Below, one piece after another: positions 13,193-46,134 of a stretch of DNA of 64,000 nucleotides (positions are counted from its first letter, which is position 1; each line of letters begins with the position of its first letter). A model generated the notes under the pieces. It made no database searches, was not told the DNA's origin, and saw only the letters and a list, made by a program, of their open reading frames with translations. Source of the DNA: a virus (taxonomy: Duplodnaviria; Heunggongvirae; Uroviricota; Caudoviricetes); the IMG/VR virus record IMGVR_UViG_3300028895_001083; one strand, given 5' to 3'. The position numbers and the translations under genes were made by a program.

Positions 13193-13584
13193 CTTTAATC
13201 GATCTTTTGGTGCTCGCTATGGCGGCACATACCCTCGTCAGCGTGTGGTTGCAAGACGGCGGGCTATTCGAAAGCTGGCGCGATTGGCTTCGTGCCTGGG
13301 CAACGCCCACGATGCGCCAGCACAGCTCGTACGAAATGCCCACCCGTTGGTCAATGGTTCGTATGAAGATCGCATACTTGGCAGAATGTCGTTTCTGCCT
13401 AACCTGCCAGGCCTGCTTTTGGCTTCTGGTACTCTTCTGGCTCCCCGGCTATTGGCTTCCAGCCATCTGGGGTGAAATCCTCTACGTGCCGGTGTACGCA
13501 CTGGCTGCTGCATGCATTGCTAGTGCCGCGACGTATCTGATGGATGCGCTCGAGGCGAAAGCAGAATCTTATTCACGAGAATAA
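13189..13584 (+). CDS. Integral membrane protein
   Basis: GGGAAG SD and multiple TM helices. The stop TAA lies inside palindrome site 2. Confidence 0.5.
   Translation: MTLIDLLVLAMAAHTLVSVWLQDGGLFESWRDWLRAWATPTMRQHSSYEMPTRWSMVRMKIAYLAECRFCLTCQACFWLLVLFWLPGYWLPAIWGEILYVPVYALAAACIASAATYLMDALEAKAESYSRE
13569..13584 (+). promoter_or_regulatory. Palindrome-family site 2 (TTATTCacgaGAATAA)
   Basis: Perfect TTATTC-N4-GAATAA ending 1 nt before the ATG of gene 13586. Confidence 0.55.
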
Positions 13585-13585
13585 T

Positions 13586-14008
13586 ATGTCCGAACGCAAA
13601 GTACCGTTCAATGAGCAGCTTCAGGCTGCTGTTGACGCATGCGAGGAGACTCTAAGGGACATTCCGGAGGTCGAAGGCGTGGCATTCACGTTTATCTACG
13701 CCGACGGCCTTACGGAGTCCGAGCCCTCGAACGTGCTTATCGGGCCTGACGACCCGATCTTTCTCGCTAAGGCTGGTAAGCAACTCACAAAGCTCCAGCG
13801 CACTGTGACCGCAGCGTTGCAGGAAAAGTTCACCGTGGCCGAGACCGTTCTATCGAACCTCAAGGCGCAAATTGACGAACACATCGCAAAAGCCAAAGAC
13901 CAGGAAGGGAACCAAGCGGAAGAAACCCCAGATCAAGGGGATAGCGACGCTGGACGACCTCCTGAAACACCTGCACATCCAGACGTGGGACACCCTGATA
14001 GTGGGTGA
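13586..14008 (+). CDS. Hypothetical protein
   Basis: ATG 1 nt after palindrome site 2, with no SD. GC3 is high until about 13880, then drops where the RNase H frame takes over. Confidence 0.5.
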   Translation: MSERKVPFNEQLQAAVDACEETLRDIPEVEGVAFTFIYADGLTESEPSNVLIGPDDPIFLAKAGKQLTKLQRTVTAALQEKFTVAETVLSNLKAQIDEHIAKAKDQEGNQAEETPDQGDSDAGRPPETPAHPDVGHPDSG

Positions 14009-14516
14009 CGGGTCTGGGACCGGGTGGAAACAAGGGGCCGGCTGGGCCTCCGTACTCATCGACCAGTCCTCAGGCGCCCGCAAACTCTTCTATGGCGCCA
14101 TGAACACTGGGACCGTCACTCTTGGCGAGATGTTCCCGTATCTGCATGCCCTATCGTGGTACGCCGGCCGAGACGGGCCAGGGCGTAACCGCCGACAAGA
14201 GGTCCAGCAACTGGGCCGTGACATGCAGGTGCACATCGTTACCGATTCCCAAACCGTCGCAACGTGCGGAAACAACCCCGCATCCCGGCGCTCGCATCGC
14301 GAGCTCTGGAAAGCGTTCGACGAGTACCGCAGCAACGGCTTTGCCTTGCAGTTCCACTTCGTTGCCCGGGACGTGATCAACTTGAACGTCCTGGTCGACG
14401 AGATTTCGCGTCAAGCACGCAAAGACATGGAGGAGACATACAGTACCGCCATGGAAACGCTGTGCAAACGATACCCAGGCCTCCCGGAGGATGCCACCAT
14501 CTATGACTTCAACTGA
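13872..14516 (+). CDS. RNase H-like ribonuclease with basic N-terminal extension
   Basis: LIVGDGSG, TDSQ and D..N..DLW-type spacing match the RNase HI fold. N-terminal tail KPKTRKGTKRKKPQIKG. Only a TTG is available as start. Confidence 0.7.
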   Translation: MTNTSQKPKTRKGTKRKKPQIKGIATLDDLLKHLHIQTWDTLIVGDGSGTGWKQGAGWASVLIDQSSGARKLFYGAMNTGTVTLGEMFPYLHALSWYAGRDGPGRNRRQEVQQLGRDMQVHIVTDSQTVATCGNNPASRRSHRELWKAFDEYRSNGFALQFHFVARDVINLNVLVDEISRQARKDMEETYSTAMETLCKRYPGLPEDATIYDFN

Positions 14517-20418: not shown

Positions 20419-20420
20419 AA

Positions 20421-24845: not shown

Positions 24846-25991
24846 ATGCCTGCCAGTGGTGATCTAAAACTGCTTGGATTCTGGCGACAGCCGGACGCCA
24901 CGCGGTGGAAACCATTTTCTGAAGATCAAGAGAGCGTAACGCTCAACGCGCCGATCGATGACGTGGTGTTTGGCGAGACTCGGGAAGATTGTCTTGCCCA
25001 GATTCACGCCAAATACCCGGCATCGGATCCCAATATGTCGCTCGTGGAGTATCGCTGGCAAACGCATCCGCGTCACCAGTCAATCAGCGGCGACCCGTCT
25101 ACGAATTGGGATAAGGACGACTCCATCGACGTGAGCGAGACGGAGCGCTACTGCGGAGCCGATCCGTGGGAAGCTCTTGCGCTTGCTAAGAAACTCGGCA
25201 CGATTGAAACTCGCAATCTGACTACGGAAGGCTACTGCTACGACGGGCCGAAGTGGGAGGAGGAGGGTTGTATTGTGACGAGTGTCGGTTGGTACACCGG
25301 CATTAAGAAGATCAAGTATGATCCCAAAGGCCTGCTACGTGCGAAGAAAGCCGCAGCGACACGCCAAAAGACGGGGGCCGTCCTCGTTAGCGACGTGGCT
25401 TCGGCGATCTGGCAGCTTGCGATGCAACTCAACGATGTTGTACGCATCCGCGGCGTCGGCAGCGATTGGAATAGCCGCTACTCCTGCTGCATCTGCGCAT
25501 TAGAGACGATCAAGTGGTTCAACGCCGTCTTCGGCAAGAACGCACATCGTCGCAACAAGCACTTCCGCGAACTCAAAAAGAAGTGGAAGGAGCGTGCAGA
25601 GGCGTCGCGCAAAGCGTGGTATCGTGACGCGCAGGTCGAATACAATGACAACGATCCGCGGGCCGTCTTCGCCAACTTCATGGCCGAAGAGATCAAGGTC
25701 CGTAACTCGCCCGTACTGACCGAAAAGGAGTGGCGAAAACGCGGCGAACGTTGGAAGCCCCCGCCGGGCACGTTCAAGGCGTTCGGCCACAAAGCCTATG
25801 CCAAACAAAGGGCGCGCGACGAAAAAGCGCAAGCCAAAAAAGAAGCCGAAGCCAAAAAAGCCGCCGCCAAAAAGAAAGCCAAAGTCGGTGGCAAAAAAGG
25901 CAAAGGCAACGCCAAAGCCAAAAGGCCGACCAAAAAGAAAGCCCCCGCAAAGAAGCGGCCGTCCCGACGTAAGTCCAAAGCTGCGCGCTGA
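24846..25991 (+). CDS. Protein with histone H1-like Lys/Ala-rich C-terminal tail
   Basis: The C-terminal ~70 aa are AKKEAEAKKAAAKKKAKVGGKKGKGNAKAKRPTKKKAPAKKRPSRRKSKAAR. Confidence 0.55.
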   Translation: MPASGDLKLLGFWRQPDATRWKPFSEDQESVTLNAPIDDVVFGETREDCLAQIHAKYPASDPNMSLVEYRWQTHPRHQSISGDPSTNWDKDDSIDVSETERYCGADPWEALALAKKLGTIETRNLTTEGYCYDGPKWEEEGCIVTSVGWYTGIKKIKYDPKGLLRAKKAAATRQKTGAVLVSDVASAIWQLAMQLNDVVRIRGVGSDWNSRYSCCICALETIKWFNAVFGKNAHRRNKHFRELKKKWKERAEASRKAWYRDAQVEYNDNDPRAVFANFMAEEIKVRNSPVLTEKEWRKRGERWKPPPGTFKAFGHKAYAKQRARDEKAQAKKEAEAKKAAAKKKAKVGGKKGKGNAKAKRPTKKKAPAKKRPSRRKSKAAR

Positions 25992-26016: not shown

Positions 26017-26244
26017 ATGAAGGAGGCCAAAAACTTCAAGGCGGCATTCAAACGTCCCTTACACGACTTCTGGATCAACAATGTACGCGGCTTCGACATC
26101 CAGCGCTTCTGCGACGAGATGCTCGAGGCGTGCCACGGGAGTTTGGTCAAAGCCGTGCGTGCTGAATACGGGGACGAAAAGGCGGCATTAATCAAACGAC
26201 TGGTGCCTAGTGGTTCCAGCGTCATGTGGCCACAAGCCACATAA
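26017..26244 (+). CDS. Hypothetical protein (75 aa)
   Basis: First ATG after the upstream stop, in the frame that carries the coding-like C-terminal segment ...FDIQRFCDEMLEACHGSLVKAVRAEYG. Confidence 0.4.
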   Translation: MKEAKNFKAAFKRPLHDFWINNVRGFDIQRFCDEMLEACHGSLVKAVRAEYGDEKAALIKRLVPSGSSVMWPQAT

Positions 26245-27094: not shown

Positions 27095-27144
27095 GGCGTC
27101 AAATATACCGTTCTTTCGGGATCCGGGGAGGACCAATTTTGTTA

Positions 27145-32048: not shown

Positions 32049-32279
32049 ATGGGTAAAAAAACAATCTGTGACCTGTGTGGAGCCGACATCGAAAAAGGTG
32101 AGTGCTTTACGATAAACCTGCTGCCGCCCCGTAGTTTTAACGGGCGTGGCAAACACATCCGCACATGGGACGTCTGTCGCGAGTGCTTGGACTTTCCAAT
32201 CAGCGGATCAAAAATGCGCAACGTGCTTCGGCGTCTCATCCCGGACTTCGTGCGCAGACTCTGGAAGAAGAGGATGTAG
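32049..32279 (+). CDS. Zinc-ribbon small protein
   Basis: CDLCG...CREC. GGTGGAGG SD. Confidence 0.55.
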   Translation: MGKKTICDLCGADIEKGECFTINLLPPRSFNGRGKHIRTWDVCRECLDFPISGSKMRNVLRRLIPDFVRRLWKKRM

Positions 32280-32684: not shown

Positions 32685-32697
32685 AAAGGAGGCGGCA

Positions 32698-33252: not shown

Positions 33253-33498
33253 GCGGCTTCGGCCGCTTGCGGGTAGTGGGAAAGTACCTAATTACCGCGA
33301 GAGCGGTGATACGCATGTCCAAATGCGCGGAAACGCCTGTGTAAGCCCTGGTAAAACCTCGGCGGCTATATGACCTCGTCCCTCGCAAATCGTGCGTGAT
33401 TAAGGGGTCCATGGCATCGAGATTATATGAGGGGGCAGCTCAAGTAAGCCTACCAGCATCTCACTTTCCTACTACCTTTTTTCACAAGGTGGTGACTC

Positions 33499-34326
33499 AT
33501 GGTCAAAGACCTGATTCTCGGTACGCCGTCACGGTCCCCTGCGGCCATGGCGGCGTACCATGCCACCGTTATCCCAAATGGTGGTGTAGTCGAAGACTGG
33601 CGAACCTATCTCGTGCCGCGGATCGCCAATATCCGTCGCGCATGGGTCGCCCGTGTCATAGCGCTCTTTAATGCTGGCTGGTCTGTTTTGCAAAGCCCCA
33701 AGCTCGCCTATGCGCAAAACTGTCTGCCGTGCATCTGCACATCAGACCCGATAACACAGACGTGCAAACTGATACCGTGCCCTTTCTGCCACGCCAGGAA
33801 GGTTGCCGATATCTACATGCGCGCCCAAAAGCTGATCATCAAGCTCGGTAACGTCCGCGTAATCAGTTGGCGACGAAAACACGGTCGGGCTGCCGTCGAC
33901 ATGATCTACCTGAACGAACACGGCCGTGTAACGGGGTTGGGTGAAGTCTTTGCAGAGCATAACGGCCGCCGACGCGAGATCCGCAGAACGCAGCTGCAGG
34001 CTGCATACGGTGGTGCACAGATGGTCACGATCGCTCCGCATACATTCGACCACCCTTCGCCGGAGGGTGCCTGTGGCCGCTGGCTCGTACAGCAGAGCGT
34101 TCTTGCTGTTGTGCCGCGCTATTGGCGTCCACCCAGAGGTATTCGCAAGCGTGCAGTCGTACGCACAAATCCCGATCCCCACGACTTGGCATACCAGGTT
34201 GGGCGGGCGTTTCGGTATCCGCAACACTGGCTTACCAGCGATCCGTGCATCATGCGTGACCTGCTGGAGGCTATGAAAGGCAGACGATTCAAAGAAATTT
34301 TTGGAGACTTACGTGGGTCAGTATGA
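33499..34326 (+). CDS. Cys-cluster (putative zinc-binding) protein
   Basis: AAGGTGGTG SD. Cluster CLPCICTSDPITQTCKLIPCPFCH. Confidence 0.6.
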   Translation: MVKDLILGTPSRSPAAMAAYHATVIPNGGVVEDWRTYLVPRIANIRRAWVARVIALFNAGWSVLQSPKLAYAQNCLPCICTSDPITQTCKLIPCPFCHARKVADIYMRAQKLIIKLGNVRVISWRRKHGRAAVDMIYLNEHGRVTGLGEVFAEHNGRRREIRRTQLQAAYGGAQMVTIAPHTFDHPSPEGACGRWLVQQSVLAVVPRYWRPPRGIRKRAVVRTNPDPHDLAYQVGRAFRYPQHWLTSDPCIMRDLLEAMKGRRFKEIFGDLRGSV

Positions 34327-35038
34327 TCCTATCGAGCGATTAGCATCGCTCGAGTCCAGACATTCCCTGTCGGCTCAAGAGCAGTTCGACATTATCTCCA
34401 ACGCCGTCGACTTCGCGAAGAACTCGCCGTTGGCGTTCGTACAGTTCATCGACATCATGGACGAGGAGCTGCAGTCGCCGCAGATGGCGGTTGCAGAGGT
34501 CAAAGACATGCTGCAGAACCCTGTGGCTGACCTCGAGGCTTTCTTCGACCGCGACCTGTCGTTGGCGTCGCTGAACAACCTCACCGAACTTGAGAGCTCC
34601 GGTGACGTGCCAGAGATGCCGTCGACCGATCTCATCAAATCAGCGGTGCTAGCAATGACGCCGTTCGACTACGAGCAGATGCGCTCCCATCTCACCATGA
34701 CCGACTTCGACTCGGCCTACCACGAAGGCGCTATTGTCACCGGGTGTTACACCCGTTTTGATGACGGTTCTATCGCTGCTGTCGCTCTCGTCCACGCCAC
34801 CCCCGCTAACGGCGGGCCGTACCTTGATGCGTGGCTGTGCCTGCCCCCGGACAAGTTTCCGGATACGCTGAATCCGTCGTTGCCTGCCACAAGGGATATG
34901 GACCAGATCTTCGAGTTCCAGTATCCTGATGGCACGTATCGCGTAATCAAACTCGTATCCGCAGCTGGCCAACAGGAATGTCCAGGTACAACGACGACAG
35001 ACACTGTGAGAAGCCACGAAGGTGCCTCCGGTGCATGA
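34301..35038 (+). CDS. Acidic hypothetical protein
   Basis: TTG or GTG (34313) start overlapping the upstream 3' end. Confidence 0.5.
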   Translation: METYVGQYDPIERLASLESRHSLSAQEQFDIISNAVDFAKNSPLAFVQFIDIMDEELQSPQMAVAEVKDMLQNPVADLEAFFDRDLSLASLNNLTELESSGDVPEMPSTDLIKSAVLAMTPFDYEQMRSHLTMTDFDSAYHEGAIVTGCYTRFDDGSIAAVALVHATPANGGPYLDAWLCLPPDKFPDTLNPSLPATRDMDQIFEFQYPDGTYRVIKLVSAAGQQECPGTTTTDTVRSHEGASGA

Positions 35039-35164
35039 ACATGTTCCTTTCCAAACATGCGGGCAACCGCATATGCCCGGACTGCACCGCGCATCCGCCG
35101 AATGTGAGCGGACTGCGTCGGGTGCACTTCGACCTTGACACCTATATGAGTCAGAAAGAGAAGG

Positions 35165-36676
35165 ATGACAAATTCGACGGAAGAGCTGGCCTCTGACGAT
35201 TACGTCGTCGTCATTGGTCCCGTCATTGTCGATCGCTACTTCGTGGGCAAACCCAGACGACTTGACCGTACGGCGCCGGTGCCTCTAATCGGCGTCACGG
35301 GACAGTTCTGGGCGCCCGGTGGCGGCGGCAATGCCGCAAACTGCTTGGCCCATCTGGCCCTCCCAACGACGTTCGTCGGCATGGTCGGAGACGACGACGC
35401 CGGCGAAGAGTATCTCAAGGCACCGATGCCTCCCAACCTGCAGCTGAAGGTTGGCAAATACGCTAACTACAGCACCCCCGTAAAAACCCGCGTCTATGCC
35501 AACAATCGCCTTGTAGCACGGTTTGACGCGGACGATCCTTACACAGGGTCGTTCGAGTCTACGACTGCGTCCTTATTTTTTAGCGCTGTGGCAGAGAAGC
35601 CGCCTTTGGCGATACTTATCAGCGACTACAACAAGGGGGTGTGCACGCCCGACATCATCGGGTCCGTGCTGCTCTACGGCGAGGATCACAACGTCCCCGT
35701 GATCGTGGACCCTGATCCGGCGCACACAGAGAGCTATCAGGGCGCTACGCTACTCACGCCGAACGCCGACGAGGCAATGCGGATGGCAGCGGCCTGCGGG
35801 TATGCAGATCGCGCAACCGATCCGGTCGAAGCAGCTGACTTCCTGGCCAACAAGTTCGATTGTGACGTCCTCGTCACGCTCGGCAGCCACGGAATGGTGC
35901 TGGTTCCGCCCCACGGGCAGGAACGGTTCCCGCTGCAAGCGCTGCCCGCCGCTGCGATCGATACGTGCGGTTGCGGAGATGCTGTGGCGTCGGCGATGAC
36001 CTACGGGATTGCCACCGGAATGAACGCACGCACGGCTACGCGCTTTGCAAACGTGTCCGGTTCGCTATGCTGCGAGATCATTGGTGCTATGCCCATCCCG
36101 CTGCACCGCCTCAACCAACGCGTGACGCTGTCGCTCGGGCTCGATCGAAAGGTCGTGACCCTCGACGAGCTGCGTCTCCTGCGGCAATCCGTCGCCGTCG
36201 CCGGCGAAATCTTCGGGGTTGCCAACGGCGTGTTCGACGGCGTCCACGACGGGCACACCTCGCTGCTACGGCAGGCCAGGGAGCATTGTGACTTCCTGGC
36301 GGTGCTCGTGAACACTGACGAATCGGCGGAGCGCATCAAGCGCCGACCGCAACACAGTCAGATAGCCCGTTCGCTCAGCCTGGCGGCGCATCCGTTGGTG
36401 GATGCGGTGCTGCTGTTCGACGGCGATAACGCAGTACCAGAGTATCAGGCGTTGCAGCCCGATATCATGGTAAAAGGGCCGGACTACAAGGATAGGGAAG
36501 ACCTGCTACCGGAAGCTGCGGTGCTGCCTGAATGGGGCGGCGAGCTGCGGTTGGCCGAGCTAGAGGTCGACGTCAGTAGTACCCAACTGCGGGAAGAAGA
36601 TGAGGCCCTCAAAGAGAGCACTGCGCCAGGAGAGACTGAAGACAGCGCTGGAGGAGCTGGAGACGCTGCGGACTGA
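35165..36676 (+). CDS. Bifunctional sugar kinase / nucleotidyltransferase (HldE/RfaE-like)
   Basis: N-terminal ribokinase/pfkB motifs GGGGNAANCLAHLA and DTCGCGDAVASA. C-terminal cytidylyl/adenylyl-transferase motif GVFDGVHDGH (the (H/T)xGH family). Confidence 0.7.
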   Translation: MTNSTEELASDDYVVVIGPVIVDRYFVGKPRRLDRTAPVPLIGVTGQFWAPGGGGNAANCLAHLALPTTFVGMVGDDDAGEEYLKAPMPPNLQLKVGKYANYSTPVKTRVYANNRLVARFDADDPYTGSFESTTASLFFSAVAEKPPLAILISDYNKGVCTPDIIGSVLLYGEDHNVPVIVDPDPAHTESYQGATLLTPNADEAMRMAAACGYADRATDPVEAADFLANKFDCDVLVTLGSHGMVLVPPHGQERFPLQALPAAAIDTCGCGDAVASAMTYGIATGMNARTATRFANVSGSLCCEIIGAMPIPLHRLNQRVTLSLGLDRKVVTLDELRLLRQSVAVAGEIFGVANGVFDGVHDGHTSLLRQAREHCDFLAVLVNTDESAERIKRRPQHSQIARSLSLAAHPLVDAVLLFDGDNAVPEYQALQPDIMVKGPDYKDREDLLPEAAVLPEWGGELRLAELEVDVSSTQLREEDEALKESTAPGETEDSAGGAGDAAD

Positions 36677-36905
36677 ACTCGCCTTCGACGAGATCACCGT
36701 AACGCTCAGCGACTTCCAACGACACTGGCAGTTCAAATATGGCGACAAGCATTTGGCGGACTGGTGGCCAGCTTCTGCGAAGGGACAGCTCACAGGGTCA
36801 CAAGACTCCGTCGACTGTGTGAGCACGTCTCAAGCGCAGAAGCTGGCCATCGCCGCTAAGAAGAAGCTGTTTACCGAGATTCGGCAGGCGCTTCAGCAGA
36901 GGTGA
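36600..36905 (+). CDS. Hypothetical protein
   Basis: High GC3 in this frame where it overlaps the low-GC3 tail of the HldE-like ORF. Confidence 0.5.
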   Translation: MRPSKRALRQERLKTALEELETLRTELAFDEITVTLSDFQRHWQFKYGDKHLADWWPASAKGQLTGSQDSVDCVSTSQAQKLAIAAKKKLFTEIRQALQQR

Positions 36906-37044
36906 GCTCCTCTCGCAGGATTTGTACATCCGGCGGGGCGTCGACACCGAGGCGGATCCGATCACGACCAGTGCGGATGACCGTGACGGTGATGTCGTCG
37001 CCAATCTTGATCTGCTCACCTTCTTTGCGGGACAGGACCAACAT
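36871..37044 (-). CDS. csrA: Carbon storage regulator CsrA/RsmA homolog
   Basis: 57 aa, MLVLSRKEGEQIKIGDDITVTVIRTGRDRIRLGVDAPPDVQILREEL. This nearly co-linear alignment to CsrA ([48 protein letters not shown]) was done by eye. AAGGAGG SD. Confidence 0.8.
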   Translation of the reverse strand: MLVLSRKEGEQIKIGDDITVTVIRTGRDRIRLGVDAPPDVQILREELTSAEAPAESR

Positions 37045-37113
37045 GGTAGACCTCCTTGTGCTTGCAGTAACAATACGCCCAGTTTATCACCTTCGGACCC
37101 CCGGAGCAACCAA

Positions 37114-37488
37114 ATGGGACAATTTCACTTCATGCAGATGTACAACGACGCCGCGGCGCGCGACTGCGCTGCCATGCCGCAGGCGTTGCTGATGATCGGA
37201 GCCGTTACGGCGGCTGAAAAGGACGCACGCGGGATGGGATATTGGGATGACCTGACCATCGACGTGCTGTTCGAGAAGGCTCGCAGGCTTGTTGACCTGA
37301 GGGACTGTTTTTCGGAACGACTAAAGCTTATGCTATTGGATGGTGAAATCCTCGTCTTAGTCCGGGACCCTGTAGATGGACGCGTCCATCGGCTCCGAGA
37401 CACCGACGTGATCGATTTCGATGACCCGATAGTAGGCCCGGAGCAGTTCTTTACATTGGCTGAAAAGCTGATCGAGCACTCGGCCTGA
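37114..37488 (+). CDS. Hypothetical protein
   Basis: ATG with a GGAG SD. The upstream part of the long ORF is antisense to csrA and was discarded. Confidence 0.5.
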   Translation: MGQFHFMQMYNDAAARDCAAMPQALLMIGAVTAAEKDARGMGYWDDLTIDVLFEKARRLVDLRDCFSERLKLMLLDGEILVLVRDPVDGRVHRLRDTDVIDFDDPIVGPEQFFTLAEKLIEHSA

Positions 37489-37491
37489 ATC

Positions 37492-37507
37492 TTATTCAGG
37501 AGAATAA
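37492..37507 (+). promoter_or_regulatory. Palindrome-family site 4 (TTATTCaggaGAATAA)
   Basis: Perfect copy ending 1 nt before the ATG of the SbcD-like gene (37509). Confidence 0.55.
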
Positions 37508-37508
37508 A

Positions 37509-38726
37509 ATGGCAGCGAGACCGCTAGCACTGGTATCGGCTGACTGGCATCTTCGTAAGTACGACCGCGTGTGGTACCGACGTGACACGCTGCGCGGCGA
37601 CGCCGCGTGGGGCGTCCGACAGGTATGCGACATTGCGGCCGAGCAAATGCCTGATTGTCTGATCCTGCTGGGCGACCTGTTCGACCAGCGGCTGCAGCAG
37701 TCAGATTCTCTGATGCTCATGCGACGAGCTATGGCTGATTTCCAGGAGAACAATATCCAAGTGCAGTTCATTCAAGGACAGCACGAGCGGTCTTCACCGA
37801 CGCTGATGAAGTCGATCCACAGCTGGTCACAGCATATCGACGAGCGGATGGTGGAGTTGGACAACGGCAACCTGCTCATGTACGGCCTGGATTATCGCAA
37901 TCCGGTCGAGGTTGAGGAGGCGCTGCGTGCCGTGCCTACAAACGCTGACATTTTGGCGACTCATCAGGTTTGGAAGGATTACCTTGGCGAGGAGCGCGGC
38001 GATGCCTGGTTCCACTGGGCGCCGACGCAGTTCATTGCCACGGGAGATTTCCACAAAGCGAAATTCGAGACGCGTGGGACGCAGAAGATCCTGTCACCGG
38101 GACCGCTCTGCATGCAGAACATCGGCGAGGATCACGAGAAGTTCGTGTTCATGCTGAACTCTGATCTCACCGTCACGCCATACAAATTGCGATCGCGCGG
38201 CTACTATGAGGCACGCCTGTACGAGGAAGCGCAACTCGAGCAATTCCTCGACGAGTGGGACGCCTCCCCGGCGAAGATCCCGCAGGTTGGCGTGCCGCCC
38301 GCCGTCGCAACAAACATCATCCGCGTTTGGTACCGTTCGGATATTCCCGACGCCAAGCCGCGGTTGGAAGGTAGGATCGGCTCATCGGCCCACCTATTTA
38401 CAACGATGATCCCTGTCGAAGACCAGGCACAGACGGTCGACGCCGAGCGGCGTGTCCAGGCTGTACTTGGTGCGGGCATGGTCGGATGCATCAACGAGTT
38501 TTACGGAGATGACCCTCGCGCATGCGCAGATGCCGTGCGGCTCTACCGTAGCAAAGACATCCAAACCGAGCTACTTTCAATCTTCAAGGAGCAAGTTAGT
38601 GTCCCTAACGGTCACCGAGAAGGAACATTTCAAGACGAGACTCCAGGAGATCCACGATCGAGCGACTGCACAACTGACGGCCGACGCGCCAGCGTGGGAG
38701 CCACGGCTCCGCAACAAGGCAGCTAA
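37509..38726 (+). CDS. sbcD: SbcD/Mre11-family nuclease
   Basis: Phosphoesterase motifs SADWH, LLGDLFD, GQHE and ATHQ. Paired with the downstream SbcC-like ATPase. Confidence 0.8.
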   Translation: MAARPLALVSADWHLRKYDRVWYRRDTLRGDAAWGVRQVCDIAAEQMPDCLILLGDLFDQRLQQSDSLMLMRRAMADFQENNIQVQFIQGQHERSSPTLMKSIHSWSQHIDERMVELDNGNLLMYGLDYRNPVEVEEALRAVPTNADILATHQVWKDYLGEERGDAWFHWAPTQFIATGDFHKAKFETRGTQKILSPGPLCMQNIGEDHEKFVFMLNSDLTVTPYKLRSRGYYEARLYEEAQLEQFLDEWDASPAKIPQVGVPPAVATNIIRVWYRSDIPDAKPRLEGRIGSSAHLFTTMIPVEDQAQTVDAERRVQAVLGAGMVGCINEFYGDDPRACADAVRLYRSKDIQTELLSIFKEQVSVPNGHREGTFQDETPGDPRSSDCTTDGRRASVGATAPQQGS

Positions 38727-39213
38727 GGTCGTCGAACAGCAGTTCGGCGTCGCGGAACTTCTGAATAAACAAATGGAAATTCGGCGTCAGCGGCGCGAGC
38801 TAGGCAGACAACTAGAGCAGCTCGACACCGAGATCTATGAGAAAATCCACGGCCTGCTGTCAGATGACGCACCCTGGGTCGAGGACGATAGGCGTTACTA
38901 CAGCCGTAACCGCCATGAACGCCAGGAATTCGCACGCTACCCGGAGAACTGCCGACAGCCAATGCGCTGCCAGCTTCAATACGAGTTCGAAAAACTCCGG
39001 GCAGAGCATCCCATTGGACGCGCTCTTGCTGAACTCAAGGACCGCGTTGACCATTACCGAGATCGCATCATTGCGTGCGCATCGCACGCAAAGATGGAGA
39101 CATTATGGGAGGAGGTTGTCGAAGAGCTGGGCAACTTCGAGCCCAGTGATCCCGACGCCCGGACTCCTAGAAAGGTGGAGACCGCCCGTGTCACACACGA
39201 TAAGAAGAAGTGA
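38599..39213 (+). CDS. Hypothetical helical protein
   Basis: GTG with an AAGGAG SD; overlaps the sbcD tail (phase +1). Confidence 0.5.
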   Translation: MSLTVTEKEHFKTRLQEIHDRATAQLTADAPAWEPRLRNKAAKVVEQQFGVAELLNKQMEIRRQRRELGRQLEQLDTEIYEKIHGLLSDDAPWVEDDRRYYSRNRHERQEFARYPENCRQPMRCQLQYEFEKLRAEHPIGRALAELKDRVDHYRDRIIACASHAKMETLWEEVVEELGNFEPSDPDARTPRKVETARVTHDKKK

Positions 39214-39226
39214 GCTGCCGCCGATA

Positions 39227-39574
39227 GTGCTTCCGAACATTATCGAGCAGGCTGTGAAGGAAACCGAGGCTGCGATGCGGGAAGCTATGGAACGCATCAA
39301 GAACATGCCGACGACACTGCTTGCCGTGGATACCGAGTCGGGGGCTATAAAAGCCGTCGACGAGTTCTCTACGGAAGCAGTGGCAGCCCGCTGTAGCCAT
39401 GAATGTCCGTGCGTTATCGGTGAAACCCATTACCGCGCACCAAATTGCCCCAATAGGAGCCCCCATGGAACATTACCCAAGCCATCTGACCCCGGCGTTG
39501 CCGATTTTCTTGGACCGAATCCGGTCGGCTGCACAATCACTCCCGGTGCACATAAGCCATCCGCCCGCGACTGA
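39227..39574 (+). CDS. Hypothetical protein (weak)
   Basis: GTG start, no SD. GC3 drops in the part that overlaps the next gene. Confidence 0.3.
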   Translation: MLPNIIEQAVKETEAAMREAMERIKNMPTTLLAVDTESGAIKAVDEFSTEAVAARCSHECPCVIGETHYRAPNCPNRSPHGTLPKPSDPGVADFLGPNPVGCTITPGAHKPSARD

Positions 39575-39668
39575 ATCCGCTGATCGGTCGTACGGAATGA
39601 CCTGTGTGCAGGCGCTCCGGATGTATGCGCCGGACCTGATCGAAGAAGGGAGGGTGATCATAGAATGA
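39465..39668 (+). CDS. Hypothetical protein
   Basis: TAGGAG SD; high GC3. Confidence 0.45.
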   Translation: MEHYPSHLTPALPIFLDRIRSAAQSLPVHISHPPATESADRSYGMTCVQALRMYAPDLIEEGRVIIE

Positions 39669-40003
39669 GTGCGGACCTCACGTTGAAGTACGCAACCACT
39701 TTCACGAGTCTTGCTAACGCTATGCGACTTGTGAAGGCGTCGCTGCTGGCCCTCAAGGATGCCAGCGATAATCTCAACGACTGGTGGGACGACCAAGACC
39801 TCGAAGGTGTGGAGGACGAGGACGAGTTCCTCGCCAAGAAAGCCGCCGAGACTTTTGGCATCCCGGAGAGCTTCGCGCTCGCCCTTGTCGACTTTTCGTT
39901 GCTTCCAGAGATCAAAGGTATGAAGGCTGCGCCGCCTGACGCCATGACGCTCGCCGAAGCGCTATCACTACTGCACCCCCTAACAAGTGAGAGCTGGCCA
40001 TGA
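39665..40003 (+). CDS. Hypothetical acidic protein
   Basis: ATGA coupling on both sides. Confidence 0.55.
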   Translation: MSADLTLKYATTFTSLANAMRLVKASLLALKDASDNLNDWWDDQDLEGVEDEDEFLAKKAAETFGIPESFALALVDFSLLPEIKGMKAAPPDAMTLAEALSLLHPLTSESWP

Positions 40004-42144
40004 TAATCCAGAAGGTCAACCTTCGACATTTCTGCCAGCACATCCAGGAAGAATTCACGCTGTCGCCTGGGCTCAACATGATCGTTGGGCCCAACGGCAG
40101 CGGGAAGACCAACCTCCTGCGTGCTACGCAGTTTCTCGTCACGGGGGACTCGGGCGGCAATCGCCCCAAGGCGGACGACGTCTACCAAGGCGTGTTCGGC
40201 TCAAACGAGGAGTCCTTTGTGAGCGGCCAGCTGTTGCACGAGGGAACAGTCATTACCCTCAAGCGTGCGCTCCAGCCGGCGACAGCCAATCTCATGGAGA
40301 TCGGCGACGAGACCTGGACGTCTGTCAATGCCATCAACAGCGAGCTGTTCCGACGGCTGGGCACGACGAAGAAGCAGATCCACGACTACATCTTCGTCCG
40401 CCAACGCGGCATCGACGAGATGTTCGACCAAAAGCCCGCCGAGCGGGCCGCATCGCTGGCATCCCTCTTCGGCCTCGACAAGGCTGAGAAGATCTGGAAG
40501 CAGACCGGCGACTTCCTCAAAACGATCGAGGTGCCGACCACGACGTTGAGTCTGGATGAGCTGAACGCGCAGCACGCTGACATACAGGTGCAGATCACCG
40601 AGCTCAACAACCAGTTCGCGGCGCTCCATCTACCACTCGACGGCGACGCCAAGCTTGCGGAACATCAAACCGTGATCGACGGCTGTAAGCAGCGTGAGAT
40701 GCTGATGAACAAGCAGGCGGTCCTGGAGAAGACGCGTGAAGAGACGCTCGCTTCTGCCAAGGCTGCGATGTCGTACCGGCAACAGTTGCAGACAGAGGCT
40801 ACGCTGCTGGAGAACGCTATGGCCGCCGTCAGCGTCGAAGCCAATGACGCGCACGGCGAGCTGGCACGTTGGGACGCGTACGATAAGTCGCTGACAGCGC
40901 GCGAGCAGTTCGTCGCCGACGAGCTGGCTTTTCGTACCAAGTGGCCGAGTCATCCGAAGCAGCCGCGCGAGGTCGCACCGCTCGGTGAGGACCTTGTCGA
41001 GGCGTTGAAGGGCTATCGTGCAGTGCGTAACAGTCTCACCAACAGCATCAAAGGCCTGGAGGATGAGGACGACAACTGTCCGACGTGTGGCCAGCCACTG
41101 CCCGAGGCCGACCAGGCCACGGCACGCTTGCAGGAGCTGCACGATCAGCTGCGTGAGTGCGAGATGGAACGACAGCCGCTCGAGGAACAGCAACGTGCGT
41201 ACGATCAGTACTGCGCCGAGCTGTTACACTGGCAACGGCAGTGCGAGGAGATGGATAAAGAGCAGGAAGCCTTGGAGCAACGCAAAGAGGCCCTGCAGCT
41301 GGTTGAGCAACCACGCAGCGCGCGTGACGCTCTCCAGGCCGTCATCGACGAGCACACCGAGTTCTGTGCGGCGCATAAGGAGATCCAGGAGAAGCTTAAG
41401 GTGGCGCTTGCTACTGAGGCCAGCCTCGACGCGAAGCTGGACCAGCAAAACCAGACGCACTTTGAGCAGACCGCGGAGATCGACTCGCTGCATAAGTACA
41501 CGGCGGAGGCCGCTACCATTGCTCGCCAGGAGTTGCAGCAGCTGAAAGGCCGGCTGGCGCAGGCCACCGAGCTCGACAAGCAGATCGCTGTGCTGCGCGC
41601 CACGCTCGACGGCGTGGAGTCGAAGATCGACGACGTGCGGCGTGTGGAGCAAAAGAGCATCCGCACTCGGCAGGCTGTCGACCACCTGCAGCGTATCCGA
41701 GACATGTACCACCGCAACGAGGCCCCGCGCTTGGTGTCCTACACCTATATCGAGAACATGCTCGACGAGGTGAACCGAACACTGGAGCTATTCGAGGCGC
41801 CTTTCCGGGTGGAGATGGACGAGGATCTGGGCTTCATCTGCCGGTTTACCGATGGTATTCGGGTGCAGCCCGACAGTCGGCTCTCGGTCGGCGAGCGGAT
41901 CGTTCTTGCTATGGCGTTCCGCATTACAGTAAACTCTACGTTCGCAGGTCAGGTGGGTGTCCTCATTCTGGACGAGCCCACTGCCGGCCTTGACGAACAC
42001 AACCTCGGCTGTCTACCGCACGCCCTGGAACGTCTGCAGGTACTATCTGCAGAGCGTGGACTCCAGGTTTTGTTCGTCACGCACGAACCGCGGATTCAGC
42101 ACCTGTTTGACAACGTCATTACGTTACGAGCCCATGAAAACTGA
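40000..42144 (+). CDS. sbcC: SbcC/Rad50-family ATPase
   Basis: N-terminal Walker A GPNGSGKTN, long coiled coil with a central CPTCGQPL zinc hook, and a C-terminal signature/Walker B region (VLILDEPTAGLD). Confidence 0.85.
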   Translation: MIIQKVNLRHFCQHIQEEFTLSPGLNMIVGPNGSGKTNLLRATQFLVTGDSGGNRPKADDVYQGVFGSNEESFVSGQLLHEGTVITLKRALQPATANLMEIGDETWTSVNAINSELFRRLGTTKKQIHDYIFVRQRGIDEMFDQKPAERAASLASLFGLDKAEKIWKQTGDFLKTIEVPTTTLSLDELNAQHADIQVQITELNNQFAALHLPLDGDAKLAEHQTVIDGCKQREMLMNKQAVLEKTREETLASAKAAMSYRQQLQTEATLLENAMAAVSVEANDAHGELARWDAYDKSLTAREQFVADELAFRTKWPSHPKQPREVAPLGEDLVEALKGYRAVRNSLTNSIKGLEDEDDNCPTCGQPLPEADQATARLQELHDQLRECEMERQPLEEQQRAYDQYCAELLHWQRQCEEMDKEQEALEQRKEALQLVEQPRSARDALQAVIDEHTEFCAAHKEIQEKLKVALATEASLDAKLDQQNQTHFEQTAEIDSLHKYTAEAATIARQELQQLKGRLAQATELDKQIAVLRATLDGVESKIDDVRRVEQKSIRTRQAVDHLQRIRDMYHRNEAPRLVSYTYIENMLDEVNRTLELFEAPFRVEMDEDLGFICRFTDGIRVQPDSRLSVGERIVLAMAFRITVNSTFAGQVGVLILDEPTAGLDEHNLGCLPHALERLQVLSAERGLQVLFVTHEPRIQHLFDNVITLRAHEN

Positions 42145-43174
42145 TTCGCAGATCCTTAAGCTGCATGTTGCTCACAAGCAAGTGTGGTATTTGGATGGCA
42201 TGGATATAGCACGGACCGATGGCCACGCGATCGAGGACTTCCTCGATACAAGCCGGCTACAGTGCGCCGAGCGGGTCCGCCTGCTCGGTCTCCATGCCAA
42301 TGCGAGGCTCATTACGGCGTTGTACGACCGCAAGCTCAAAGGTCAGCCCTTGGAGATTGAAGTCGCATCGCCGTTGGCGTGCGCGTCTGTTGCGGAGCGT
42401 CATAACCCAGAGGCTGTGCTGTATCGCATGCGCCTCTTCGAACGCGCTCCGAGTGTCGGCGGCTTTCATACCGTCACTGAGAACGACTACCGTGCATATG
42501 CCCTCGCGGTCGAAACCATGCAGAGCGTCTTTAACAACATGCCAACAACCCAGCAGGCGTTACGACTTCTGCGTGCCCATCCAGCGTGGCGCGCAGTGTC
42601 GTTCATCCACAGCGTCAACCCCATGGCTGTCGCTGGCCTGCTCAGCTACATGCTCGATCCGCGGTGGTTCGTTGACCCGTGCTACCCGGACCGTTTGAGT
42701 AAGCTGTACATGAGTCTCGGGCTGCATCCAAAGACGCAGGCTGGGGTGACGTTGGGCGGTGCGCAGCACCGTAACCACAAACGCTGTGCGCTGGTACTGC
42801 GTTGCTGGAAAGACAGAACACGTGAGGGCGAGGTGCGCAGCAAGTTCGAAGTCACCGCGCCTGTCGCCGTGACAGGCAGCTCCGAACTCGGGCTCGCACC
42901 GTATGACTTCTCGTGGCGTCAGTGGGGATTGCACATGGGTATCGGCATGGACACCGACATCGAACCCAATCCTGTCAAGGCGGATCTGCGTGCGTCACAA
43001 CGCTTCGTGGCCTTCCTGAGGCATACGTGGCTGGATGCGCTTTATCGCGATTCGAGTGCCTTGCCAGGCGTCAATACCGAACTGTTCCGACCCGGCGATT
43101 TCTTCAAGCAACACAAGGAGATCATCGCTTACCAACAGCACGTGGAAGCGACCGAAGGAGACAGTTACTGCTGA
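42134..43174 (+). CDS. Hypothetical protein
   Basis: ATG overlaps the sbcC end by 11 nt; 346 aa. Confidence 0.55.
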   Translation: MKTDSQILKLHVAHKQVWYLDGMDIARTDGHAIEDFLDTSRLQCAERVRLLGLHANARLITALYDRKLKGQPLEIEVASPLACASVAERHNPEAVLYRMRLFERAPSVGGFHTVTENDYRAYALAVETMQSVFNNMPTTQQALRLLRAHPAWRAVSFIHSVNPMAVAGLLSYMLDPRWFVDPCYPDRLSKLYMSLGLHPKTQAGVTLGGAQHRNHKRCALVLRCWKDRTREGEVRSKFEVTAPVAVTGSSELGLAPYDFSWRQWGLHMGIGMDTDIEPNPVKADLRASQRFVAFLRHTWLDALYRDSSALPGVNTELFRPGDFFKQHKEIIAYQQHVEATEGDSYC

Positions 43175-43243
43175 CCGTATCTAGTGGTGTTGAAGTTTCT
43201 GACCACAAAATATGGGATTGTCAAAACTGCCGGTGTTTATCCG

Positions 43244-43272
43244 TTGACAGGCTCAACAACGGCAGGTAGTAT
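43244..43272 (+). promoter_or_regulatory. Sigma70-like promoter (TTGACA-N17-TAGTAT)
   Basis: Perfect -35 with 17-bp spacer. The -10 keeps the invariant A2/T6. Lies upstream of the AAAGGAAG SD and GTG at 43304. Confidence 0.5.
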
Positions 43273-43303
43273 GCATACTGCCAACGGGCAAAAGGAAGTT
43301 CCC

Positions 43304-43756
43304 GTGATCGAAGTAAGGATACAGCTGCGGTTCAATCAGCACTCACTCGGAGACCGCCGAACTAAGCAGCTCAACCAGATGCTGCGCGACCCTGACGGCC
43401 GTGTAATGTTCATGCCGACCTGGTGGAAGGCATTGATGCGTTATGCGGCTCAAGTTGTCAATAGACACCACGATGCTGTCAAAGACATCGACTGGGCGCC
43501 CGTCATCGAGGGAACTCCAAGGGAGTACAAACGATTCTACGCCCCGCAGAAGTTCACACTTCACGAGGCGTTCTTTCCAGGGGACGAGATCATCGTACAC
43601 GCAGTGCTGCCGACGGAACTTCCTATCGACGACTTCAAGGAGTTGCTTGAGGTGGCCGGCAAGTACAGAGGCATCAGTCCCTATCGCAAGGATCAGAAGT
43701 ACGGCACCTTTGATGTCATTGCTGTGACGCGGAGGATCAGGACAAAACCCAAGTAA
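43304..43756 (+). CDS. Hypothetical protein
   Basis: GTG with an AAAGGAAG SD, downstream of the promoter. Confidence 0.5.
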   Translation: MIEVRIQLRFNQHSLGDRRTKQLNQMLRDPDGRVMFMPTWWKALMRYAAQVVNRHHDAVKDIDWAPVIEGTPREYKRFYAPQKFTLHEAFFPGDEIIVHAVLPTELPIDDFKELLEVAGKYRGISPYRKDQKYGTFDVIAVTRRIRTKPK

Positions 43757-43763
43757 AAGAAAA

Positions 43764-43797
43764 GGCCCGCTGGTGGCACAGCGAGCCTTTTGTGTTT
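43764..43797 (+). terminator. Rho-independent terminator
   Basis: GGCCCGCTG-gtggca-CAGCGAGCC (9 bp, 1 mismatch) followed by TTTTGTGTTT. Confidence 0.6.
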
Positions 43798-43898
43798 CAC
43801 GACCTGCAGGGGCATGCGGTCATGGCGGTATGTTACTGCCAATGATAGCGGACCCTGCGCATGTGGTCAACCCCGTTGGGGGGACCAAAGGACGCAGA

Positions 43899-45440
43899 AT
43901 GTCAAAAGTGGCAATGATCCGCAAAAGCGGACCGTTCATTGCGGTCTCGCAGGACGGCGTAGCTTCGCTCACGCCGAACGAATACCGGATCCTTGAAAAC
44001 CAGCTCTGGTACACCAAGCTCACGTTTCACTACGGTGCAGCTGCCTATGACCCCCATACGGGGGATCGGCAGAGCATGTCCGGCGAGCGCCGAAAGCTCT
44101 ATCAGTACGACAATAACGGACATTTCATCTGCCAGCGCGGCTTCTACCCCCGGGTTAGGGGGTTACTTGAGGAAGCCGGGTATACCATCACCTTCGTCGA
44201 CACGGATCCGCCTGTGGATCCTGTCATCTACACGCCCGACTGGGATCGGATCTTCGAACGCTTCCAACTCCGTGCGAAGCAGGACGAGTGTCTCGCCCAG
44301 ATCGACATGCACGACGGTGGCTATATCGATGCGCCTCCAGCGTTCGGTAAGACGCACGTAATGGCCATGGTGAGTTCCATGTACCCGAGGGCCAAGATTG
44401 ACATCGTGGCCAAGAGAAAGGACGTGGTGGGCCGTATACGCGATCTCCTGACGCGTTGGGTCCCTAGCGTCGGTATGGTCGGCGGAGGCAAGAAGCAGAA
44501 GGGGCGAGTCACGGTCTACACCGCTGACAGCTTGCACCACTCTGACTTCGACGCGCATATCATGCTGGCCGACGAAGGGCACGAGTTGATGACAGATCGT
44601 CTAGCCAAGCTGCTGGGCAACTATCACTACTCTCGCAACTTCGCATTCTCTGCTACCCCGGACACGCGCCTCGACAATGCCCACTTCCGCATGGAGGGCA
44701 TCTTTGGGCCGTGCGTCTTCAAGATGTCTCAGCAAGAGGCAGAGCAGGCGGGACTCGTGTCGCCTGTCTTCGTACAGTGGATCGATGTTCGGCTGTCGCA
44801 CAACCCGATCGCCAACATCAAGACTCTCGTGGCGCAGAAGCGCAACGGGATCTGGAGGAATCAATACCGCAACCAGGTCATCGCTGAAACCGCTCGGGCG
44901 TTCCGAGAGGGCGACGATCAGGTGCTCATCCTCGTCGACACAGTGGACCATGCATTGCATCTGCGAAAGCTGTTGCCGGAGGCGGCGCTGTGTTACTCTG
45001 AAGGTGCTCTCACCGACGGATCGAAGCGGGCCATGTTCATACGGAACGGTTTGCTCGACGAGGACGAACAGATGACTACGGCGCTGCGCAACAGTCTGCG
45101 GCACCAGTTCGAGAACCGTGAAATCAAGCTGGTCATCGCTACAGGTGTCTGGTCCGTCGGCGTGTCTTTCGATTCGCTGAACGTCTTGATCCGCGCCGAT
45201 GCCGGCGCCAGCGAAACTACCAACATCCAACTGCCCGGCCGCGTGTGTCGAATCGACCCATCGAGCGGCAAGCAGTGTGGCATTCTCATCGACTTCAATG
45301 ACGTATGGGATACGAAGTTCAAAGGCCGAGCCGCAGACCGTCGACGCGATTATCACAAACGCGGATGGACGCAGCTGCTGGCTGACGGCAAATTGTGGAC
45401 CCCAGGCATGAGAGTGAACCGTGTCGGAACACAGAAATAG
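43899..45440 (+). CDS. Superfamily-2 DNA/RNA helicase (DEGH-box)
   Basis: Motif I PPAFGKTH, II LADEGHE, III SAT, VI QLPGRVCR. AAAGGA SD. Confidence 0.75.
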   Translation: MSKVAMIRKSGPFIAVSQDGVASLTPNEYRILENQLWYTKLTFHYGAAAYDPHTGDRQSMSGERRKLYQYDNNGHFICQRGFYPRVRGLLEEAGYTITFVDTDPPVDPVIYTPDWDRIFERFQLRAKQDECLAQIDMHDGGYIDAPPAFGKTHVMAMVSSMYPRAKIDIVAKRKDVVGRIRDLLTRWVPSVGMVGGGKKQKGRVTVYTADSLHHSDFDAHIMLADEGHELMTDRLAKLLGNYHYSRNFAFSATPDTRLDNAHFRMEGIFGPCVFKMSQQEAEQAGLVSPVFVQWIDVRLSHNPIANIKTLVAQKRNGIWRNQYRNQVIAETARAFREGDDQVLILVDTVDHALHLRKLLPEAALCYSEGALTDGSKRAMFIRNGLLDEDEQMTTALRNSLRHQFENREIKLVIATGVWSVGVSFDSLNVLIRADAGASETTNIQLPGRVCRIDPSSGKQCGILIDFNDVWDTKFKGRAADRRRDYHKRGWTQLLADGKLWTPGMRVNRVGTQK

Positions 45441-45450
45441 CTCGTTGCGT

Positions 45451-46134
45451 ATGCAGCGGCCGCCGCCGGAAGAATACGAGGCGCTGCCGGAACGCAACAT
45501 GTTCTCCACCAACCCCGCTGGTCACATGGCCAGGCGGCTCTACCAAGCGTACAAACGCGAGACATACTGGCGTGCTATGCGCGTGGAGAATGTCAAGCTA
45601 CCGAACTTCAACACGCGCGAGCTGGGTGACTGCTGGCCGCGGCTGGCACGCCTCATCATGCAGTCGGGCTGGTCGAATGCCGAGCGGTTCATCCACGTGC
45701 AGTTCAAGTACGGGCCGAGCAGCGAGAAGCTGCAGACGCTCGAGCACGGACCGCTGGTGAACATGCTCACGTCCGAAAAGGCGATGAAGCAGTACACGCA
45801 GTACATCGTCCGTGCCGACAGCATGCTGGTACAGCAGTTGGAGTCTGCCAAACTCGAGTTCAAGTGTGCTAGCGCTGAATGCGCGGGACAGTACCCGCAC
45901 CTGCCCACCAGGGAGCGCTGGGAACTTATTCTCATGAATAAAATGTTGGATCTCCCGCCGCTGTTCCGGTACTGCGTGGCCTCTTCCGAGGGGCTCGCCT
46001 GTGCCAAGGACTTGTGGGAAGAAGGCTTTCAGCAGTTCATGTCCGATCCGATCGGGTATACGCGTACGTGGGAAGCGACCATTCCTGCCGAAATGAAAGC
46101 CGAAGCCGAAGAACTACTGCAGCTCAAACTCTAG
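45451..46134 (+). CDS. Hypothetical protein (contains intragenic palindrome site 5)
   Basis: First ATG after the helicase stop. Confidence 0.45.
   Translation: MQRPPPEEYEALPERNMFSTNPAGHMARRLYQAYKRETYWRAMRVENVKLPNFNTRELGDCWPRLARLIMQSGWSNAERFIHVQFKYGPSSEKLQTLEHGPLVNMLTSEKAMKQYTQYIVRADSMLVQQLESAKLEFKCASAECAGQYPHLPTRERWELILMNKMLDLPPLFRYCVASSEGLACAKDLWEEGFQQFMSDPIGYTRTWEATIPAEMKAEAEELLQLKL
45926..45941 (+). promoter_or_regulatory. Palindrome-family site 5 (TTATTCtcatGAATAA), intragenic
   Basis: Perfect copy inside ORF 45451-46134. It embeds in-frame ATG AAT AAA ATG and lies about 200 nt upstream of the DnaB-like helicase gene. Confidence 0.45.

Follow-up and report, generated by a model that had tools for sequence, protein, structure and literature searches.

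A dispersed palindrome at gene starts of an uncultured phage and its relatives as a candidate operator for a dimeric regulator

Palindromic operators that recur throughout a replicon are known from plasmids. The KorB OB operators of the IncP plasmids and the centromere/operator palindromes of the prophage-plasmid N15 occur in about a dozen copies over a replicon of approximately 50–60 kb, and through them a single dimeric DNA-binding protein exerts global control over genes for replication, maintenance, and regulation. At the RNA level, the RegA operators of phages T4 and RB69, in which an AU-rich element lies over the Shine-Dalgarno (SD) sequence or the AUG, mark early, replication-type phage genes. 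In Cluster A mycobacteriophages, repressor sites are dispersed in short intergenic gaps, and the motif diverges with the phage lineage and with the specificity of the repressor (PMC9283540, PMC6550527). For the bacterial phylum Verrucomicrobia, a LexA motif common to all three major groups has been reported, and electrophoretic mobility shift assays with Verrucomicrobium spinosum LexA showed that each single-base change in an arm abolished binding (PMC4951493). Here, we describe a palindromic element, TTATTC-N4-GAATAA (TTATTCNNNNGAATAA), that recurs in a 64,000-nt stretch of DNA (hereafter, the window) from an uncultured phage of the Caudoviricetes (IMG/VR record IMGVR_UViG_3300028895_001083) and that may serve as an operator for a dimeric regulator.

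Exact matches to TTATTCNNNNGAATAA were found at positions 13569–13584, 30172–30187, 37492–37507, and 45926–45941, in agreement with the four perfect copies listed in an initial annotation of the window, against an expectation of 0.00; none occurred in 100 dinucleotide-preserving shuffles. Allowing up to two mismatches added 2584–2599 (TTATTCACGTCAATAA, one mismatch) and 55525–55540 (TTGTTTCCATGAATAA). Both had been noticed previously, the former as a one-mismatch copy and the latter as a right-half copy that gives the ATG AAT AAA start at 55533. When the degenerate form TTRTTYNNNNRAAYAA was searched with at most one mismatch, seven window sites were obtained against 0.47 expected, a count reached in 0 of 100 shuffles, and the additional site (27139–27154, TTGTTAATGGAAACAA), which the initial annotation had missed, lies at the start of a sigma-factor gene. 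The proposal that the element is over-represented and selected is thus borne out by both the perfect and the degenerate counts. All five TTATTC hexamers on the plus strand of the window fall within the element, which is the sole recurring palindrome with 6-bp arms in the window and, in a repeat-family search (family D2), its only dispersed family of the non-coding type. Furthermore, a gene start is found no more than 30 nt from five of the seven sites (binomial P ~4e-5), the exceptions being 30172 and the intragenic 45926. The element is real, selected, and conserved. A literature search with the motif strings found no earlier description of it, and a scan of IMG/VR for TTTGTTCNNNNGAACAAA gave, among the matches listed, mostly single and apparently chance occurrences. 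The sites and the genes associated with them are as follows.

2584–2599, site TTATTC ACGT CAATAA, one mismatch, in the tRNA region between tRNA-Glu and an 84-aa gene
13569–13584, site TTATTC ACGA GAATAA, perfect, with the ATG of the next open reading frame (ORF) at 13586
27139–27154, site TTGTTA ATGG AAACAA, degenerate, overlapping the first codons of the sigma-factor gene
27145–27915, plus strand, sigma-70-family factor, RpoS/RpoH-like, a proposed target gene
30172–30187, site TTATTCACGTGAATAA, perfect and fully self-complementary, in a 253-nt conserved intergenic region
30257–30790, plus strand, 177-aa very basic protein, downstream of site 30172
37492–37507, site TTATTC AGGA GAATAA, perfect, orthologous in at least 11 relatives
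37509–38726, plus strand, SbcD-like metallophosphoesterase, a proposed target gene
45451–46134, plus strand, conserved 227-aa ORF containing site 45926, immediately upstream of the DnaB-like helicase gene
45926–45941, site TTATTC TCAT GAATAA, perfect, read as codons L-I-L-M-N-K of ORF 45451–46134
46158–47801, plus strand, DnaB-like replicative helicase
55525–55540, site TTGTTT CCAT GAATAA, degenerate, in the 10-nt gap after gene 55007–55522

When SbcD homologues were used to collect related phages, 62 metagenomic loci and several long contigs became available for comparison. Every relative with an SbcD identity of at least approximately 47% (47–56%) carried the element at orthologous places, in the form TTGTTC-N4-GAACAA: directly upstream of SbcD, inside the ORF preceding the DnaB-like helicase gene, and, in L007 and L019, in a long conserved intergenic region. 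Further copies occurred at the sigma/NDK operon, at the sigma gene in the loci L014 and L017 and at the NDK gene in L005 and L003. The earlier suggestion of a dispersed regulon, with the SbcD-like nuclease and the ORF preceding the DnaB-like helicase gene among its members, is supported by these conserved orthologous sites, and the scan of relatives that it had called for placed the element at the same genes and found it absent from more distant phages. A covariance model built from 25 sites detected further degenerate copies in the motif-bearing clade only; approximately 330 kb of more distant relatives gave one hit with an E-value of 6, and no recurring palindrome whatsoever was seen in the genomes of those distant relatives.

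The window and its relatives differ at one arm position throughout. Position 3/14 was A/T in 13 of 16 window half-sites versus 0 of 60 half-sites in the relatives, a change from G:C to A:T. At the intragenic site 45926, the same switch took the form of GTT>ATT (Val>Ile) and AAC>AAT (synonymous), indicating that selection acts on the nucleotide sequence; at this position, relatives free of the element have different, GC-rich codons and no palindrome. The change of specificity is concerted across the genome, and it calls for a sequence-specific partner acting in trans.

The initial annotation had offered two forms for the element, a dimeric operator in DNA or an RNA hairpin that occludes the start codon, and we compared these by means of an alignment of 38 sites. 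Over a 9-pair helix, 85.1% of cells were paired, compared with 83.7 ± 0.7% when the 3′ partners were shuffled among sites, and the lineage switch was the sole pair changed on both sides. The mid-stem pair 12–21 was broken in 9 of the 38 sites with no compensation, and all six core pairs were of the Watson-Crick type in only 17. Among the 22 non-Watson-Crick pairs, 14 were of neither the G·U nor the A·C type, five were G·U, and three were A·C; in four genomes, the SbcD site holds TTGTTC/GATCAA, a T·T clash. Meanwhile, the base frequencies of the left arm and the reverse-complemented right arm were indistinguishable at all eight inner positions (p 0.26–1.0), and the variants TTGATC and TTGTTT recurred on either arm, whatever the partner. 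The arm spacing was always 4, and the N4 centre was represented by 16 different tetranucleotides. In three of the seven sites free of ribosome-binding site (RBS) or coding constraints, the centre was itself self-complementary (ACGT, ACGT, and AGCT; P ~0.007, post hoc), a property that has meaning for the dyad symmetry of DNA but not for an RNA loop. The predicted RNA hairpins had energies of −2.8 to about −6 kcal/mol, with z-scores of −0.45 to +0.44 relative to shuffled sequences at seven of nine sites (the exceptions were −1.2 at the SbcD site of L007 and −2.5 at 30172), and the minimum-energy RNA fold of the window SbcD site differed from the motif hairpin. The pairing, mismatch, arm-symmetry, centre, and stability tests together suggest that two equivalent half-sites are read by a symmetric dimer on duplex DNA. 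A selected RNA helix fits the site data poorly, and the hairpin suggested previously is not supported, since compensation is lacking, the mismatches are mostly not of the wobble type, and stability is near that of shuffled sequences at most sites; the independence of the half-sites, the symmetry of the arms, and the concerted switch instead favor the dimeric operator.

The arrangement of the individual sites is more varied than had been described. The window gene array is mostly co-directional, with tiny gaps and ordinary GGAGG-type SDs, and the start codon may be located after the right arm of the element, in its centre, or at or before its left arm. An ATG placed 1 nt past the right arm was indeed seen at 13569, 37492, and 45926, but the wider claim that the element abuts start codons holds only as a tendency, with a varying geometry and with a start that may be absent. 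Elsewhere, the start lies approximately 12 nt downstream behind its own SD, approximately 70 nt downstream, or nowhere nearby, and one conserved site is 70–85 nt from any start. Because intergenic gaps of 10–30 nt force any intergenic DNA site over an RBS, the association with start codons may largely follow from the gene arrangement.

At the SbcD gene, the element begins 3 nt past the stop of gene 37114–37488 and ends 1 nt before the ATG (37509), and the N4 centre together with the first G of the right arm forms the SD AGGAG (37498–37502), 6 nt before that ATG. The initial annotation was therefore mistaken in seeing no SD at this site. An SD was present in the centre of the SbcD site in every genome, although its sequence shifts (AGGA, CGGA, CCAG-GA, and ATGG-GA), and with this signal retained throughout, the element must be transcribed at SbcD. 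Site 45926 lies approximately 230 nt upstream of the DnaB-like helicase gene, which is its probable downstream target, and is orthologous in seven relatives. It was correctly described as intragenic, within the 227-aa ORF, but the nearby in-frame ATGs were not conserved in relatives (L017, L007, and L021), and an internal translation start at this site was accordingly rejected as a conserved feature. At 55525, the ATG of gene 55533–56633 sits in the centre and right arm.

The sigma-gene site at 27139 has orthologues at the sigma gene of L014 (position 439) and L017 (position 1769). The start of the window gene is ambiguous, with ATG 27073 and GTG 27082 (both upstream and in frame), TTG 27139, and ATG 27145 as candidates; the longest option (27073–27915) would overlap the divergent minus-strand gene 26222–27094 by 22 nt. 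The 3′ end of the sigma gene overlaps the NDK gene (27893–28318).

Site 30172 is located approximately 70 nt upstream of gene 30257–30790, with a GC-rich hairpin between them, and has orthologues at 4716 in L007 (TTGTTCAGCTGAACAA) and at 5273 in L019. The surrounding intergenic region (30004–30256) is conserved with L007 and contains twin hairpins, CCTTCC-GAA-GGAAGG and CCTTCC-GTAA-GGAAGG; it also contains a long inverted repeat, AAACGACTAAAG...CTTTAGTCGTTT, after which come the palindrome and then the GC-rich hairpin GGGGGCGG...CCGCCCCC. No Rfam match was obtained for this region, which may form a structured leader or encode a small RNA. A small ORF starting from a GTG in the site was dismissed on its flat codon-position GC profile. 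The basic protein encoded at 30257–30790 had no family match; speculatively, it is a candidate nucleic-acid binder.

Site 2584 is followed by gattGGAG and then by an ATG at 2612, and the copy at 18060 of the contig L073, just beyond the window end, is likewise followed by ATTGGAG and a start approximately 12–14 nt on. The 84-aa gene called downstream of 2584 (2612–2866) overlaps the start of tRNA-Gln by 15 nt. At 13569, the right arm contains the TAA stop of the upstream ORF 13039–13584. In this called 181-aa gene, which has a homologue in L028 (E ~1e-16), GC content is flat over the three codon positions (0.56/0.51/0.55), unlike in its neighbours; the uncalled ORF 13586–14008 has a normal coding signature up to approximately 13871 and overlaps the called gene 13872–14516. 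When the copy in L073 (window-equivalent position ~64708) is counted with the seven copies from 2584 to 55525, the eight are unusually evenly spaced, with a mean spacing of 8.9 kb and a coefficient of variation (CV) of 0.37 (P ~0.006 versus random placement, post hoc), which may reflect the size of transcription units or an architectural role.

We see an even chance that the elements are operators, placed over the RBS or start of replication, recombination, and sigma genes, for a dimeric DNA-binding regulator that is specific to the lineage and probably encoded by the phage. The half-site would be approximately (A)T-Y-TTRTTC, with two half-sites facing each other across the 4-bp centre, and the 16-bp core, extending to approximately 22 bp with its flanks, would be bound as double-stranded DNA by a two-fold symmetric regulator. 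This regulator would most likely be encoded by the phage itself because the specificity differs between phage lineages. Sites in the very short co-directional gaps, and one inside an ORF, would overlie the DNA for the RBS or the first codons, and the predicted target set comprises the sigma factor/NDK operon, SbcD(-SbcC), the stretch preceding the DnaB-like helicase gene, and several unknown genes. Transcription into, or just upstream of, these targets would be repressed, with the element acting as an operator or a roadblock, and the replication, recombination, and regulatory module would be switchable as one unit. A more far-reaching version, which we regard as doubtful, is a network of a phage-encoded global repressor whose specificity was switched between sister lineages (G:C type versus A:T type) and which silences the sigma factor together with the replication/recombination module; in a variant of this version, the relatives would hijack the host LexA, and the window phage would have escaped to its own factor.

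Several observations weigh against a phage-encoded regulator acting on DNA. For the 89 proteins whose genes lie in the window or adjoin it, Pfam searches gave no convincing match to helix-turn-helix (HTH), ribbon-helix-helix, ParB, or S24 domains except for the sigma factor, and for the genes adjacent to the sites, searches of Pfam, PHROGs, NCBIfam, and PDB sequences likewise gave no DNA-binding regulator except for the sigma factor. A scan of 26500–46400, which includes four sites, found no adjacent sigma-70-type promoter, although host promoters may be of a different type. The overlap with an SD or start at five of the seven window sites is equally expected of a translational operator. A sequence-based model was used to gather the site alignment, and it would miss hairpins whose stems differ entirely. 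In addition, in L009 and L025, which have no palindrome, GGAGAAACAAAT or GGAGAACACAAT still precedes SbcD at approximately 9975–10000; by comparison with these loci, the right arm of the SbcD site (GGAGAACAAAAT) is an ancestral SD-plus-spacer or RBS, and the left arm a clade-specific addition. In relatives without the palindrome, the orthologous position at SbcD showed no hairpin, and a terminator scan around the same four sites (26500–46400) found none adjacent.

A small zinc-ribbon protein family (CxxC...CxxC with a basic tail) is encoded at 32049–32279 of the window, at 5725–5940 of L014, and at 5739–5957 of L017, and its gene is directly preceded by the palindrome in L014 and L017 but not in the window. 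This protein is a possible candidate for the regulator.

By analogy, the closest functional counterparts of the element would be the stoperators of Cluster A mycobacteriophages and the global operator networks of the KorB type. Like the stoperators, which are bound by the immunity repressor of the L5 gp71 type, the element occurs as many motif copies in short co-directional gaps and diverges among relatives. However, stoperators are asymmetric 13-mers bound by a monomer of a repressor with an HTH and a stoperator domain, and their orientation follows transcription, whereas the present element is dyad-symmetric, has equivalent half-sites, lies over SDs and start codons, and occurs in an uncultured phage of approximately 220 kb. 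No homologue of the stoperator-type repressor was found among the proteins examined. The KorB and N15 sites lie in or near promoters at variable distances and are bound by ParB-family proteins; in contrast, no ParB-like gene or promoter was found here in the region examined.

If the element acted instead in RNA, as a translational operator whose hairpin over the SD or start limits ribosome access, it could do so alone or with a phage RNA-binding repressor, for which T4 RegA, T4 gp43, and the MS2 coat protein are models. The placement of the sites is suited to this: five of the seven window sites and most of those in the relatives overlap or abut an SD or start, and at SbcD the element is certainly transcribed and keeps its SD in all genomes. 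On the coding strand, four closing T·G pairs and a single G·T pair are compatible with wobble pairing, and the flanks can lengthen the stem over the AU of the AUG. As in RegA and CsrA targets, an AU-rich element lies over the SD or AUG, the AGGA of the SbcD site in a short stem is CsrA-like, and the phage has a CsrA homologue. RegA sites, however, are unstructured and not palindromic, CsrA needs a GGA that is missing at most sites here, and the symmetry and mismatch pattern point to DNA. The absence of compensatory covariation, the mismatches (some of them conserved), the unconserved loop, the stability and alternative fold described above, and an equal variant spectrum on both arms, which neither single-stranded nor hairpin RNA recognition predicts, all make this explanation improbable; the unconserved ATGs of the intragenic site and the distance of 70 nt to the start at sites of the 30172 type further weaken it. 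CsrA as a general explanation was rejected, since the required GGA is absent from 2584, 13569, 30172, 45926, and 55525 and occurs only in SbcD-type sites and a few others. The CsrA homologue itself (36871–37044, minus strand, 57 aa) has a canonical sequence, and the AGGA centre of the adjoining SbcD site resembles a target for it. Most motif-bearing relatives have kept this CsrA homologue, which was not detected in L003, L019, L009, L025, or L028; a literature search on phage-encoded CsrA likewise gave no earlier description of the element.

Among DNA-binding proteins, host LexA deserves attention: in Verrucomicrobia-like hosts, the sites would be SOS boxes through which DNA damage switches on lytic, replication, and recombination genes, in the manner of phage GIL01. 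The core of the relatives' element, TGTTC-N4-GAACA, is exactly that of the Verrucomicrobia LexA motif as defined by experiment, including the 4-bp spacing, and both are spaced dyads with a variable centre; the targets are DNA-metabolism genes, and one Chthoniobacter site in the genome-wide site table lies at distance 0 from a gene start (PMC4951493). The window phage, however, reads TATTC-N4-GAATA, with A:T where LexA needs G:C, which alters the very base at which single substitutions abolished binding. The phage sites also differ in their pattern of tolerance, which includes TTGATC and TTGTTT half-sites, and in carrying ATY flanks and an invariant extra outer T/A, where LexA sites have A, G, or C. 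Furthermore, the phage motif switches between phages that are approximately 55% identical in SbcD, whereas the LexA motif is reported to be stable phylum-wide. No S24/LexA domain was found in the window proteins, and a scan of genome contigs for host assignment returned one unclassified metagenome-assembled genome only. We consider host LexA distinctly unlikely. It is still less probable that the element is a promoter for the phage sigma factor or a phage RNA polymerase that gives leaderless or very short-leader mRNAs. A conserved, oriented-looking block of 20–25 bp directly upstream of genes is the usual guise of phage promoters, the phage has its own sigma factor, and an A-N3-T in the left flank and arm is −10-like. 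The SD of SbcD, however, lies inside the element, so that transcription must begin upstream of it, and the element overlaps the coding start at the sigma gene and lies inside an ORF at 45926. Dyad symmetry and a concerted change in two arms have no role in a sigma-type promoter, the 4-bp arm spacing is unlike −35/−10 geometry, and no sigma-70-like pairs occur nearby (26500–46400). We give the lowest probability to a role in genome architecture or partition, with sites of the parS/ParB or KorB type, at which a ParB-family clamp would be loaded to segregate or organise the genome and genes would be silenced as a side effect. The element is a 16-bp palindrome, its sites are unusually evenly spaced (CV 0.37, P ~0.006, post hoc), and the best site, 30172, matches 12 of 16 bases, including the inner TTCACGTGAA, of the canonical parS, TGTTTCACGTGAAACA (palindrome TGTTNCACGTGAAACA). 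Nevertheless, the 68 kb examined contained no ParB-like gene or domain, only two sites have the CACGTG centre, and a tight link to gene starts at orthologous positions is not a property of parS. Likeness to the DnaA box (TTATNCACA) and to FNR, CRP, Rex, and IHF sites was limited to a few window sites or had the wrong spacing, and these candidates were rejected.

The window derives from a metagenomic phage genome of approximately 220 kb, and both an ENA contig of 220,266 bp and a JGI contig of 61 kb encode the same SbcD-like protein. Gene calls, together with precomputed Pfam hits, span the entire window. They include a GpA-type terminase, an NAD-dependent ligase, an HldE-like enzyme, and the CsrA homologue, in addition to the RpoS/RpoH-like sigma factor overlapping NDK, SbcD/SbcC, two helicases, and a fusion of uracil-DNA-glycosylase (UDG) and PolA. 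Nucleotide and protein searches of cultured-phage records gave no close relative, a distant DNA polymerase being the sole match, and IMG/VR searches with SbcD and the helicase as queries gave no matches. The UDG-PolA fusion (48909–52094) is a family A DNA polymerase of 1061 aa with an N-terminal domain of the UDG superfamily, and its identity to any cultured-phage polymerase is only approximately 23%. A tRNA cluster near the left window end consists of tRNA-Met (680–753), tRNA-Glu (2072–2145), and tRNA-Gln (2852–2925); Rfam gave these three tRNAs and nothing else. An 18-nt tandem repeat (GCCAAAAAAGAAGCCGAA-like) at 25815–25877 codes for a Lys/Ala-rich segment close to the 3′ end of gene 24846–25991.

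Gene regulation in uncultured jumbo phages is almost a blank, and a single, easily recognised operator would provide a concrete handle on it. The element links a phage sigma factor, NDK, SbcCD, and the helicase region, and in doing so it would define a regulon and predict a co-evolving regulator. It would also amount to a natural experiment in which the specificity of an operator and its regulator changed genome-wide, even within a coding sequence. More generally, an AT-rich palindrome beside an ATG is not necessarily an RNA structure. If the regulator is a silencing repressor, the finding bears on whether such large phages can be temperate, and a repressor network with switched specificity, the dyad-symmetric counterpart of the mycobacteriophage stoperators, would mean that this uncultured jumbo-phage clade has a lysogenic or carrier state and immunity groups.

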